Positions 58,014 to 63,945 of a stretch of 64,000 nucleotides of DNA are shown here, in pieces (the first letter of the stretch is position 1; the number at the start of each line of letters is the position of its first letter). The notes under the pieces are model-generated. The model did not search any database. It had not been told where the DNA came from and saw nothing but the letters and a program-made list of their open reading frames with translations. The position numbers were made by a program, and so were the translations under genes. This DNA is from Candidatus Magasanikiibacteriota bacterium (lineage in GTDB: Bacteria > Patescibacteriota > Patescibacteriia > Magasanikbacterales > UBA922). Location of the stretch: the NCBI GenBank assembly GCA_049287025.1, contig JBAQFA010000022.1, forward strand, positions 30,225 through 94,224, given 5' to 3'.

Positions 58014-58124
58014 AATCTCGAGCGAAGCGAGAGATCCCTTTTCTTTGGGTTTAACTTCGCTTTATTTTAAAAATTTTTTAATGTTTTGGAAAGGGATTCC
58101 TCATCCTTCGGGATTCGGAATGAA
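58014..58124. repeat. family A palindromic element (intercistronic atpD-atpC)
   Basis: about 90% identical to 62689-62795 copy; abuts atpD TAG. Confidence 0.7.
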
Positions 58125-59522
58125 CTAACCAACATCTTCTATTCCACCCTTCATATAAAAAGCTTGTTCTGGCTTGTCATCGTGCTTACCGTCAAGGATT
58201 TCACCAAAAGCTCGAACAGTGTCAGCTAATTTTACATATTTACCTGGAGTGCCAGTAAAGACTTCGGCCACGTGGAAAGGTTGTGACAAGAATTTTTGTA
58301 ATTTTCTGGCGCGTGATACAGTCAATTTATCTTCGTCAGATAATTCTTCCATACCAAGGATAGCAATAATATCTTGTAAGTCTTTATATTTTTGTAAAAC
58401 TCTCTGCACTTCACGAGCCACACGATAATGTTCTTCACCCACAATGTTTGGATCCAAAATAGTAGATGAAGAATCCAATGGATCAACCGCGGGATAAATA
58501 CCAAGTTCTGATAATGAGCGATTTAACACAACGGTAGAATCCAAGTGAGCAAAAGTGGTGGCTGGAGCTGGGTCAGTTAGGTCGTCGGCTGGTACATAAA
58601 CCGCTTGTACAGAAGTAATAGAACCTTTGTCGGTTGAAGTAATACGTTCTTGCAATTGTCCCATTTCTGTTGCCAAAGTTGGTTGATAACCTACAGCTGA
58701 TGGCATACGACCAAGGAGGGCGGATACTTCGGAACCAGCTTGAGTAAAACGGAAAATATTATCAATAAACAATAGTAAGTCTTTACCTTCTTCATCGCGA
58801 AAATATTCGGCCATAGCGAGAGCAGTCAAAGCCACACGAGCACGGGCCCCTGGTGGTTCATTCATTTGACCGAAAACTAGAGCAGTCTTGGCTAACACCC
58901 CAGATTCTTCCATTTCGCGATATAGGTCATTGCCTTCACGAGTCCGTTCACCGACACCTGCAAACATAGAAAATCCACCATGCTCTTGAGCAATATTTCT
59001 GATTAATTCTTGGATAACGACAGTCTTACCTACACCAGCGCCACCAAACAAACCAACTTTTCCACCTTTTAAAAATGGGCAGAATAAGTCAACGACTTTG
59101 ATACCAGTTTCTAAAACTTCTGATTTGGTTGATTGATCTTTAAAACTTGGAGCTGGTCTGTGAATTGGATAATGTTTTTTGGCTTTTTCATCACCTTTAC
59201 CATCAATCGGTTTGCCAATCACATCAAACATACGACCAAGAGTTTCTGGTCCAACTGGAACAGAAATGGGGGCACCAGTATCTACGACTTCAGCTCCGCG
59301 AGCTAGACCATCGGTAGTACTCATGGCAATGGTACGAACCATATTGCCTCCAAGGTGTTGTTGTACTTCCAATACCAAGGTTTCACCATTAGGCATTTGA
59401 ACTTCCAAAGCAGAATACAATTCTGGTAAATTTTCTGGAAAGTGTACATCAGCGACTACGCCGATAATTTGACTGATTGTTCCAATATTTTTTTCTGACA
59501 TAATATTATTTTTATTAATCAC
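58125..59522 (-). CDS. atpD: ATP synthase beta subunit
   Basis: GGAGVGKT P-loop. Confidence 0.95.
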
Positions 59523-59616
59523 TAATTTGTTACAAATTAAACGAATTGTTCACGAATTATTTTTATTCGTGTCAAATTCGTCGAATTCGTATAATATTCG
59601 TGAATTCAACAATGCA
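59523..59616. repeat. cgaatt/attcgtg-rich repetitive intercistronic region
   Basis: cacgaattatttttattcgtg palindrome and repeated cgaattcgt units. Confidence 0.5.
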
Positions 59617-60585
59617 TTATTCTAACGCTGCAGCACCACCAGCAATCTCGGCAATTTCTTGGGTAATACCAGCTTGGCGGGCTTTGTTATAAGTTAAGTT
59701 CAATTCATCTATCATATCTTCGGCAGAATCACTAGCATTTCTCATCGCCATCATACGGGCGCTGTGTTCACTGGCCGATGATTCCAAAGCTGCTTGAAAA
59801 ATCTGTGTTTCCACTAGTCTTGGTAAAATTGTTTTTAAAACATCAGTTGTGTTTGGTTCAAACAGGTAGGTATCAGTAATCAAAGTTTTATTATATTTTT
59901 GTTCATCTGTCATCAAGTTGCCATTACCAGCCCCAAGATTATTCATCATTTTTTCCAAATCATGTTCGGAAATTGGTAAAACTTGTCTCAATTTTGCATT
60001 CTGGACAATCGCTGATTGATAATCAGTATAAGCGACTACTACTTTGTCATATTTCTTAGCTTCATATTCCCCCACAATCATTTTGGCAATTGGTAAAATG
60101 TCATTTAAATTTGGAGTATCAGAAATATCACTATATGAGGCAATTAAATTAAAGCCGTTTTTCTTGGCAAAATCAGCGCCTTTTTTTCCAATACCAATGA
60201 CATCAATTTCAATATTTTCATTTGGTTCAATGTGTCCGTTTTCTACTCTGTGTCGGCTAATATTTTTTGGATCCTTTAATTGTTCAGTAGTTTTTCTAAT
60301 AATATTCGCATTAAAGCTACCACACAGACCACGGTTAGATGTTACTAAAACCACTAATAGTTTTTTTACCGGCCTCACTTCTAATAAAGGTAATTTTACT
60401 TCCTGTACTTTTGACAAACTAACCAAAAGATCCCAGGCCATTTTGGCATAAGTGCGAGTATTAACAGCTGCCTCAGTTGCTTTTCTCATTTTAGCAGCAG
60501 CAACCATTTCCATGGCTTTCGTAATCTTCTTCGTATTGCCAACGGATTTGATGCGACGTTTAATTGCTTTGGTATTTACGGCCAT
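59617..60585 (-). CDS. atpG: ATP synthase gamma subunit
   Basis: N/C-terminal coiled-coil helices. Confidence 0.85.
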   Translation of the reverse strand: MAVNTKAIKRRIKSVGNTKKITKAMEMVAAAKMRKATEAAVNTRTYAKMAWDLLVSLSKVQEVKLPLLEVRPVKKLLVVLVTSNRGLCGSFNANIIRKTTEQLKDPKNISRHRVENGHIEPNENIEIDVIGIGKKGADFAKKNGFNLIASYSDISDTPNLNDILPIAKMIVGEYEAKKYDKVVVAYTDYQSAIVQNAKLRQVLPISEHDLEKMMNNLGAGNGNLMTDEQKYNKTLITDTYLFEPNTTDVLKTILPRLVETQIFQAALESSASEHSARMMAMRNASDSAEDMIDELNLTYNKARQAGITQEIAEIAGGAAALE

Positions 60586-60589
60586 ACAA

Positions 60590-60716
60590 ATTCATTCCGA
60601 GAGTAGCGAGGAATCTTTTTTACCTCTTACTTCTAGAAATAATAAATTAGTAATTTTAAATAATACTTTTTAGGAAAGATTCCTCACCCTCGCTTGAGCT
60701 CGAGTTCGGAATGAAC
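60590..60716. repeat. family A palindromic element (atpA-atpG)
   Basis: cattccgagagtagcgaggaatctttt ... aaagattcctcaccctcgcttgagctcgagttcggaatg; abuts atpA TAG. Confidence 0.7.
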
Positions 60717-62688: not shown

Positions 62689-62795
62689 AATCTCGAGCGA
62701 AGCGAGAGATCCCTTTTCATTGGGTTTAACTTCGCTTTATTTTAAATGTTGTTTAATGTGTTGGAAAGGGATTCCTCACTCCGTTCGGAATGAAC
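62689..62795. repeat. family A palindromic element (atpF-atpH); 3' arm encodes last 7 codons and TGA of atpF
   Basis: ttcggaatgaacg rc encodes IRSFRTE-stop. Confidence 0.7.
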
Positions 62796-63375
62796 GAATT
62801 GTTTCTTCAATCAAAGTGACATCTTTTTTGTCATCCAATTTTTCATTCATTATTTTTTCCACAGCCGCAATAATAAGATTAACAGTTTCTTTCTTAATTT
62901 CAGTCATCATACTTTCTTTTTCTATTTGGATATTTCGTTTGGCCTGATCAACCAACATCTCAATTTCTTTCTTGGCTTTTTCTTTCATGTCAACAGACAA
63001 TTTTTCTGCCTCAGTGTGTGATTTTTCAATTATTTTATTGGCTTCCACTTTCGCTTGATCCAATTTTTCTTGAAATTTCACTTCACTCATTTGCAAATTA
63101 GTTTCCACTGCCTTAGCATTATCAATGCTGTCGTCAATTATTTTTTTACGTTCTTCCATGGTCTTCGTCAATGGTTTTAAAATCAAAAACCAAACAATCG
63201 CACCAACAATGGCAAAGTTTAATAATTGAAAACCAAATAATTGAGCATTGATACCAAGTGAGGCTGCAACACCCTCATTTTTTGGAGCAACGGTAGTGTG
63301 TTCTGCGGTGGTAGCTTCAACATTTGTTTCTTCTACAGCTTCAGAAGAGGCGTAAGCATTTTCTATTAAAAACAT
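62776..63375 (-). CDS. atpF: ATP synthase b subunit
   Basis: N-terminal TM plus long helix. Confidence 0.7.
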   Translation of the reverse strand: MFLIENAYASSEAVEETNVEATTAEHTTVAPKNEGVAASLGINAQLFGFQLLNFAIVGAIVWFLILKPLTKTMEERKKIIDDSIDNAKAVETNLQMSEVKFQEKLDQAKVEANKIIEKSHTEAEKLSVDMKEKAKKEIEMLVDQAKRNIQIEKESMMTEIKKETVNLIIAAVEKIMNEKLDDKKDVTLIEETIRSFRTE

Positions 63376-63503
63376 ATTTTTTATTTAATAATTATATTAG
63401 TTTATCTCCATTTATCTCTATACTATTTCATAAAATTGAGATAAATAGAGATAATGAAATAATCTGATTACGCCGGATCATATTTGACCCAGCGTCTATC
63501 AAT

Positions 63504-63725
63504 TTATTTCAATGTAAATACAACTACAAGGGCGTAGATGGCGATAGCTTCAGCAAAAGCTGCACCAAGCAACATTGGGACGAACAATTTTCCAGCAGAT
63601 TCTGGGTTACGTCCGATTGATTCCATAGCTTTGCCTACCAATTTACCGATAGCAAGAGCTGGAAACATACCACCGATTGCCATGGTGAAGGCTTTGGCCA
63701 AGACCACGATAGATGCGTGTTCCAT
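63504..63725 (-). CDS. atpE: ATP synthase c subunit
   Basis: two TM hairpin, conserved carboxylate region. Confidence 0.85.
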   Translation of the reverse strand: MEHASIVVLAKAFTMAIGGMFPALAIGKLVGKAMESIGRNPESAGKLFVPMLLGAAFAEAIAIYALVVVFTLK

Positions 63726-63805
63726 ACTTTTTCCTCTTAGATATTAGAGCCGATCGACCAAGGTTGGATATTTAAGGTCGTGGGTAATATCAATTATTAA
63801 TTAAG

Positions 63806-63945
63806 CACACTGTCATCCTGAGCGACAGCGAAGGATCTTTCTTATCTCGGATTTATTTAATTCATAATTTATTGAAATAAATATGCCTGTGGTAAGAAAG
63901 ATTCCTCGTCATCTCTTTCAGGATTTCTCGGAATGACAGAAAAAC
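63806..63945. repeat. family A palindromic element (atpB-atpE)
   Basis: ctgtcatcctgagcgacagcgaaggatctttctta ... taagaaagattcctcgtcatctctttcaggatttctcggaatgacag. Confidence 0.7.

Follow-up and report, generated by a model that had tools for sequence, protein, structure and literature searches.

The closest described counterpart of the repeats reported here is the NTS/SRM-Ssn system. In Neisseria the repeated sequence NTS, CGTCATTCCCGCGMAVGCGGGAATCYRG, has the dRS3 repeat as its core (Chenal et al., Nat Commun 2025, PMC11893778). Its relatives across phyla, termed SRM, are tied to Ssn proteins, and Rickettsia is among the genomes that hold more than 300 SRM elements (PMC11893778). SsnA is a single-domain GIY-YIG protein (cd10448) of 94 amino acids that binds the hairpin only as single-stranded DNA and cuts a few nucleotides upstream (5') of it, on one strand only; three bases 5' of the palindrome are needed for cutting and a C just 3' of it for binding, whereas RNA and double-stranded DNA are ignored (PMC11893778). 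In Neisseria, Ssn lowers the integration of transforming DNA bearing NTS, and the authors remarked on the motif-gene-motif layout, similar to that of an insertion sequence, and on the parallel with REP repeats and RAYT proteins (PMC11893778). Here we analyse a stretch of 64 kb from a Candidatus Magasanikiibacteriota bacterium (contig JBAQFA010000022.1, positions 30,225 to 94,224; hereafter the window), in which four palindromes lie in gaps of the atp operon. We consider it likely that each of them is an inverted doublet, carrying no gene, of an NTS/SRM-Ssn-type hairpin repeat. We file them as a variant and not as plain members, because the published SRM pattern fails on them and their stem is interrupted.

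Results

The window has a GC content of 33.7%, and its nearest relatives by atp genes are Candidatus Magasanikbacteria (Patescibacteria/candidate phyla radiation, CPR). Between 57.5 and 64 kb the minus strand reads atpB (its end)-E-F-H-A-G-D-C, and atpC, D, G, A, H, F and E were confirmed with Pfam. Four palindromes of 107-128 nucleotides (nt) each fill gaps of this operon, abutting or containing upstream stop codons. Doublet 1 (58014-58124) occupies the whole space from the atpD stop to the atpC ATG; its forward unit on the plus strand (58015-58036) reads ATCTC-GA-GCGAAGC-GA-GAGAT-C, and its forward unit on the minus strand (58095-58124) reads TTCATTCC-GA-ATCCCGAAGGAT-GA-GGAATC. Doublet 2 (60590-60715) lies in the atpA-atpG gap with units at 60591-60615 (plus) and 60678-60715 (minus). 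Doublet 3 (62689-62796; units at 62690-62711, plus, and 62770-62796, minus) lies in the atpF-atpH gap and adjoins the atpH ATG, and doublet 4 (63811-63938; units at 63811-63837, plus, and 63900-63938, minus) lies in the atpB-atpE gap. Thus the four copies reported in an initial annotation of this DNA exist essentially where it had placed them, with the span of copy 4 corrected from 63806-63945. Its statement that two copies are about 90% identical also holds, copies 1 and 3 being 95% identical over 93 nt. Among the atp copies, doublet 4 alone carries the canonical TGTCAT lead on both arms. A pattern spanning the two arms, TCATYCYGA..GARGRATC..GATYYYTCG, gave five matches in the window (the four copies, copy 4 on both strands) and none in 100 dinucleotide shuffles. 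The 3' arm adjoins the start codons of atpC and atpH in the window, and that of atpH in two relatives, L213 and L214 (L-numbered labels denote stretches from other genomes or contigs, P-numbered labels proteins). On the mRNA (minus) strand the elements fold with minimum free energies of -27.5 to -42 kcal/mol (z = -2.2 to -4.7), in line with the proposal that they would form stable stem-loops between cistrons; plus-strand folds of the atp gaps reach z values down to -6.0.

Each arm of these elements is a hairpin that folds on itself: (G)TCAT-YCY-GA-[mini stem-loop, often GCGNAGC]-GA-RGR-ATC, in other words AT-YCY-GA-[inner stem-loop]-GA-RGR-AT with (G/T)TC before it and C after it. An element of 107-128 nt consists of two units inverted relative to each other, complementary sequence that extends them inwards, and a spacer rich in AT. 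A structural scan of the window placed units at ten sites, always as inverted pairs in which, whichever strand is read, the 'GA' strand comes first. By strict self-complementarity the window has 17 units, whereas 200 shuffles gave 1.06 on average and 5 at most; every window unit inspected has the trailing 3' C. In all, the window holds ten doublets, four in the atp operon and six elsewhere, with 17-20 units in 64 kb. The initial annotation had described a palindromic family with terminal inverted repeats (TIRs); dispersed palindromes are indeed what we find, but the arms are not plain TIRs, since each folds on itself and has its own covariation.

Searching metagenomes with the two-arm pattern returned at least 120 contigs, and the unit, arm and doublet statistics that follow rest on the matches listed. 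Over 310 units, Watson-Crick pairs make up 91-94% at the three variable positions of the stem. The four stem types are comparably common (TCC/GGA, 83; CCT/AGG, 78; TCT/AGA, 50; CCC/GGG, 46), and mismatched combinations are few. When 54 distinct units were aligned without gaps (A1), pairing held in 96.3% of cells, and compensatory change was seen at five of seven pairs; the observed covariation was reached in none of 500 shuffles, and slid registers fall to 15-52% paired. Second arms close perfectly in 148 of 184 cases, where chance would give about 0.3%, some of the 184 being also constrained by an opposite-strand match. Of 148 units, 142 have NGTC in front, and the palindrome is trailed by C; the search pattern imposed part of the TC and C at the flanks. 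In Neisseria these positions control how SsnA cuts and binds. The arms of 28 of the 96 doublets are of unlike stem type, each arm still being self-complementary; therefore it is the hairpin unit that forms the conserved module. Spacer ends beside the units are complementary within an element as well (6.4 of 12 positions, versus 3.5 with shuffled partners), and thus the whole doublet is a long imperfect palindrome. The contigs with the doublet pattern range from 34 to 73% GC, and therefore the hairpin family crosses phyla. Structure and covariation are thus present, the arms align, and copies occur well beyond the atp operon. Among 2.9 million viral contigs the doublet pattern was seen in 36 stretches (L218-L253), against the at least 120 metagenome contigs.

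The hairpin features point first to single-stranded DNA rather than to RNA, given three observations taken together. The commonest inner loops, GCGAAGC (25), GCGCAGC (14) and GCGGAGC (5), all fit GCGNAGC, an extra-stable DNA mini-hairpin motif (PMC13037366). Stem mismatches read on the forward strand comprise 13 G-U (G-T) and 19 A-C, and with no bias of G-U over A-C there is no sign of an RNA-specific tolerance of wobble pairs. The third observation is that SsnA, as published, does not bind RNA. Rfam scans of the window and of 14 metagenome loci at gathering score gave no relevant match, what they returned being a thiamine pyrophosphate (TPP) riboswitch and one tRNA; on 57400-64000 at E<=5 there were chance miRNA-like matches only.

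The relation of the elements to stop codons differs from gene to gene. On the minus strand, the TAG stops of atpD (58125-58127) and atpA (60716-60718) directly adjoin doublets 1 and 2, both through the junction GTTAG|TTCATTCC, and the 16-mer TTCGGAATGAACTAAC is common to the two. The atpF TGA (62776-62778) lies within the arm of doublet 3, which encodes the last six to seven atpF codons (..IRSFRTE*) together with the stop. In contrast to what the initial annotation proposed for all four genes, the atpB TAG (63945-63947) is outside the arm, 6 nt beyond doublet 4. In relatives, atpD and atpA end in AAATAA with protein length unchanged, and since equal length is reached in this way the GTTAG junction seems to have come with the element. 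A hairpin unit likewise supplies the TGA (16212-16214) of an RlmB-like methyltransferase gene. Six stop codons touch a unit or lie within 6 nt of one, and four of them are TAG, versus 12 of 70 open reading frames (ORFs) in the window overall. Across the metagenome loci listed, crude gene calling gave a modest association with 3' ends, the median distance being 64 nt to 3' ends versus 82 nt to 5' ends.

A candidate partner enzyme is encoded 42 kb from the atp doublets. The gene at 16272-16589 (plus strand) encodes a single-domain protein of 105 amino acids assigned by Pfam to GIY-YIG, and it is bracketed (16208-16648) by two hairpin units, one 5' of it at 16208-16229 (forward on the plus strand, and holding the TGA of the RlmB-like gene) and one 3' of it at 16620-16648 (forward on the minus strand). 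The catalytic residues Y11, Y21, R31, H35, E69 and N88 are conserved. Its close homologues number 43, most of them from Patescibacteria, and at E<=1e-3 the family comprises 6966 cluster representatives, nearly all single-domain and 95-160 amino acids long. Homologues are located between operon genes; in L083 and L086 the identical unit type stands on both flanks, and in 16 of 193 family representatives the protein is predicted with a unit-encoded tail, such as ..DPSLRSG*. Homologue P0018, 49% identical to the 105-residue protein, has exact published NTS/SRM matches on both flanks. An NCBIfam search gave the protein no name, and against the PDB by sequence only distant UPF0213 relatives were found (1zg2, 1ywl). 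We call it Ssn-like, and a putative member of cd10448, on indirect grounds, namely likeness to P0018 and the conserved catalytic residues. Among the window ORFs scanned with Pfam no RAYT was seen; the ORF flanked by units is the GIY-YIG gene.

Two further observations concern this enzyme family. In L092, a 3.98-Mb genome, two Ssn-like genes stand 1.7 kb apart (3278-3630 and 5002-5354), each bracketed by exact NTS-consensus hairpins and followed by runs of GGGAATGAC-like repeats; their called start codons fall within the upstream hairpin (MSFPRRRES..), and the published SRM pattern has four matches in L092, around these two genes. P0165, of 2559 amino acids, contains 12 separate stretches matching the 105-residue GIY-YIG query and long Thr/Pro-rich repeats.

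Even close relatives differ in which copies they have, through gain, loss or replacement, and some matching gaps hold other palindromes. Reading of the junctions gave no consistent insertion target motif. An nhmmer profile of five window copies found no copy in 80 atp loci of other genomes. L003 and L005, whose atp proteins are 81-89% identical to those of the window, have no copy of the hairpin family in their atp gaps and carry other inserts instead, among them a 23S_rRNA_IVP four-helix-bundle gene with AT-rich inverted flanks (L005 2640-3030; Pfam E 5e-29). AtpF homologues end in ..SFRT[EK] in several relatives, and therefore the atpF-atpH insertion is common to several of them. In L213 the element at this site is identical to copy 3 at 105 of 108 positions (97.2%), loop included, whereas the flanking genes atpF and atpH are 74.7% and 73.2% identical and the third codon positions of atpH 59.5%; copy 4 is missing from the atpB-atpE gap of L213. 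In the more distant L214 the orthologue of copy 3 is only 70% identical. Given 97% identity in L213 but 70% in L214, recent copying or conversion into an existing site would fit copy 3 better than uniform purifying selection, as far as three genomes suggest. Two atpG-atpD gaps carry genes between hairpins: in L214 (8734-8961) an ORF of 75 amino acids without a Pfam match lies as cargo between two units of the family, and in L008 (8796-9089) a GIY-YIG homologue lies amid two doublets of a third hairpin type (GTCATCCTGAAnnnnTTCAGGATC).

Elsewhere in the window, three of the ten doublets are translated in frame within ORFs. Two short ones lie in a UvrD-like helicase, a UvrD/PD-(D/E)XK helicase-nuclease, at 44615-44691 (peptide NPERSEGSRGSSNKQRDSSSSSTPQN) and at 44921-44991 (peptide NPEQSEGSRSSSDKHRDSSALPQN), and amount to about 22-27 extra residues relative to the solved UvrD and PcrA structures, which are without inserts; the latter falls between helicase motif II (DEFQD) and motif III (GDDDQSIY), the former further downstream. 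The third (27491-27586) is inside an alpha/beta-hydrolase ORF and is translated as residues 64-96, and in the two best PDB matches of this protein the aligned stretches shown start at residue 95-96. The gene for this helicase-nuclease takes its final residues (..EFRIL) and its TAG stop (42671-42673) from an arm of doublet 6 (42553-42690), and doublet 5 (41572-41695) is intergenic, with extra small hairpins in both arms.

Hairpins of other kinds are also present in the operon. The atp gaps 59502-59616, 62204-62295 and 63386-63470, without the Ssn-type family, hold strong AT-rich palindromes (whole-gap z = -3.9, -5.2 and -8.5) made of the short repeated words ATTCGTG, TGATCAC and GAGATAA. Palindromes of the GAGATAA word occur in relatives' atp gaps too (L005 4430-4520, L216 4650-4725), as does a GCYTACAARGC-type word family (L003 4965-5100, L214 7615-7706, L216 5331-5393). 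Directly 3' of atpE, the c-subunit gene, stands a GC-rich hairpin (63470-63496, minus strand), and a hairpin of other sequence occupies the matching position in L213, L214 and L216; it may be a stabiliser or attenuator of conserved position for this high-copy subunit.

Far from the operon, two GC-rich islands (9090-9360 and 9590-9900) have 55-62% GC in a genome of 34%, with a promoter-like site upstream of each and a direct repeat of about 75 nt after each, at about 9431-9505 and 10008-10082. The ORF at 9073-9369 in the first has no Pfam match, the second contains the ORF 9585-9899, and the region has no convincing Rfam match; the islands look like foreign cassettes or RNA genes. The TPP riboswitch (454-553; RF00059, 67.8 bits) lies upstream of the ORF 576-1247. 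ORFs at 23-27 kb were considered as type IV pilus genes and rejected, as they are cell-wall and aminotransferase genes.

Discussion

If the atp palindromes are NTS/SRM-Ssn-type doublets, as we think probable, the encoded nuclease of this Magasanikbacterium would recognise the units whenever the DNA is single-stranded. The repeats would have spread by copying or conversion into the few sites that a streamlined genome tolerates, presumably the spaces between cistrons, right beside stop codons, and protein loops that accept insertions. The atp doublets would then be mainly passengers, with side effects in the form of stop codons, C-terminal residues, leaders of the next cistron and strong stem-loops in the mRNA.

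Several observations weigh against this assignment. The published SRM pattern, HGTCWYN(0-2)YYVSBRHN(0-5)WNVSBRGN(0-2)RNCYNB, has no match in the window, L083, L086 or L008, and an internal tandem G-A with a mini-hairpin replaces the continuous ATTCCCGCG stem of the published SRM. Among the window copies GTC precedes the palindrome in copy 4 only, the others having TTC, ATA or another trinucleotide. Since the Neisseria rules tie cutting to the bases 5' of the palindrome, units without GTC might be bound but poorly cut; either this is so or the local enzyme may have shifted its specificity. NTS is rarely found inside genes in Neisseria (2%), versus three of ten doublets here. Finally, every other atp gap in the window, L213, L214 and L216 holds a strong hairpin of an unrelated family (z = -3.7 to -10). 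Either a hairpin is wanted at these positions, or the gaps are safe havens for several palindrome families, and a hairpin as such could be selected at the RNA level.

A broader proposal goes beyond assignment to the NTS/SRM-Ssn type, and in its entirety we hold it tentatively. It takes the doublets together with the Ssn-like gene as a true class of mobile element, driven by a GIY-YIG single-strand nuclease and parallel in function to REPIN/RAYT. By cleavage followed by copy-repair, new copies would 'home' into hairpin sites already present or overwrite them. In streamlined Patescibacteria they would act as operon punctuation, as a source of stop codons, leaders and the tails of proteins, and an essential operon that entered a cell as foreign single-stranded DNA would be marked by them for cutting. 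Homing into existing sites would explain why the atpF-atpH copy is 97% conserved amid flanking genes of about 74% identity.

Might the elements be kept for a task in the RNA? Stem-loops between cistrons could shield upstream mRNA segments from 3' exonucleases or act as RNase III processing sites and thereby set subunit stoichiometry, resembling REP/BIME, ERIC, Correia elements and intervening sequences of rRNA, and such a role could coexist with the Ssn explanation. We rate it as rather unlikely to be the reason for which the elements are kept. The strong folds on the mRNA strand, the unrelated hairpins of every other atp gap, the 97% conservation of copy 3 with its loop against 74% in the flanking genes and the apposition of the 3' arm to the atpC and atpH start codons speak for it; so do the insertions other than introns in CPR rRNA genes, which encode GIY-YIG or IVP proteins (PMC11270868). 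Against it, units also lie inside ORFs, beside the nuclease gene and, in many phyla, between genes in convergent, tandem or divergent arrangement, the loop GCGNAGC is a DNA mini-hairpin, mismatches show no excess of G-U over A-C (13 versus 19), and SsnA does not bind RNA (PMC11893778). Some orthologous gaps are short, that between atpD and atpC in L214 being about 13 nt, so a hairpin is not required there; the 70% identity of the L214 orthologue of copy 3 likewise argues against uniform purifying selection. An effect of the doublets on mRNA stability is plausible.

Classical miniature inverted-repeat transposable elements (MITEs), mobilised in trans by a transposase of the DDE type or similar through recognition of their TIRs, would share the size of 107-128 nt, the inverted ends, the multiple copies and the presence or absence between relatives. 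We regard this origin as very improbable. Junctions read by eye showed no target-site duplication, the arms of 28 of 96 doublets differ in stem type while each remains self-complementary, and the sole unit-flanked ORF is the GIY-YIG nuclease; no transposase was found among the window ORFs scanned with Pfam, a scan that covered a minority of them. Intrinsic terminators or attenuators within the operon are likewise very improbable. The stems do contain GC, and a consensus scan flags 58016-58032 and 62691-62707, but every match inside an element (these two and 62782-62796) falls on the plus strand and so is antisense to atp, the stems have no following U-tract on the mRNA strand, and every copy has essential cistrons downstream.

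With assignment to the NTS/SRM-Ssn type, a very widespread palindrome of 25 nt would now have a known family of partner enzymes. The hairpin would also be the source of the recurrent pseudo-peptides ..DPSLRSG and HPERSEGS (seen as PERSEG) at predicted protein ends, and the published SRM search pattern would under-count the family by missing a major variant. The window offers a minimal genome in which repeats are placed precisely at stop codons, within loops of proteins and among the cistrons of an essential operon. Near-identical elements amid diverged flanks bear on how Ssn-associated repeats spread, a question left by Chenal et al., and the variant hairpin with its enzyme of 105 amino acids is a candidate new specificity for tools that cut single-stranded DNA.

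With the described NTS/SRM-Ssn system the window repeats share a short oriented hairpin, an outer stem of ATYCY/RGRAT and a C after the palindrome; the GTCAT lead of that system is also that of the unit, though in the window copy 4 alone keeps its GTC. They are likewise abundant (17-20 units per 64 kb, where hundreds of copies per genome are known), mostly intergenic and found in many phyla, and they form the motif-gene-motif arrangement around a single-domain GIY-YIG gene for about 100 amino acids. They differ in that the stem of the unit is broken by the tandem G-A and closed by the GCGNAGC mini-hairpin, in their compact inverted doublets with a spacer, in their Patescibacterium host, in the loss of the GTC lead from most window units and in the three of ten doublets that are in frame.

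The dRS3-RS-dRS3 arrays of Neisseria are intergenic mosaic elements. Like the doublets they have two copies of a short palindrome bracketing an intergenic spacer of 40-150 nt, and the brackets are hairpins recognised by Ssn; unlike them they have another hairpin sequence, and here we see single doublets and no arrays, with no role in phage integration known for the window doublets.

The initial annotation likened the elements to REP/BIME. As a hairpin repeat with a dedicated nuclease the comparison is apt: in REP/BIME/REPIN an imperfect palindromic hairpin is recognised as single-stranded DNA, inverted doublets are formed, the gene for a dedicated nuclease is flanked by repeats, copies are intergenic at gene 3' ends, and effects of REP on mRNA stability are known. 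The partner in the window is a GIY-YIG protein instead of an HUH tyrosine enzyme (RAYT, IS200/IS605-like), neither a RAYT nor a transposase. The REP-type GTAG head is absent from the units, whose head is (T)GTCAT or TTCAT, and the sequences are unrelated.

The likeness to Rickettsia palindromic elements (RPE), also proposed at the outset, was upheld by the three copies inserted in frame. Compared by features, both are palindromes of about 100 nt that enter genes in frame and add hydrophilic peptides, whereas most window copies are intergenic. Correia (NEMIS) and ERIC/IRU are known to form RNase III substrates or to alter mRNA stability. They resemble the doublets in being palindromic, 100-150 nt long and transcribed together with adjacent genes, but their arms do not fold on themselves and they have no GIY-YIG partner, and Correia elements have true TIRs with a TA duplication.

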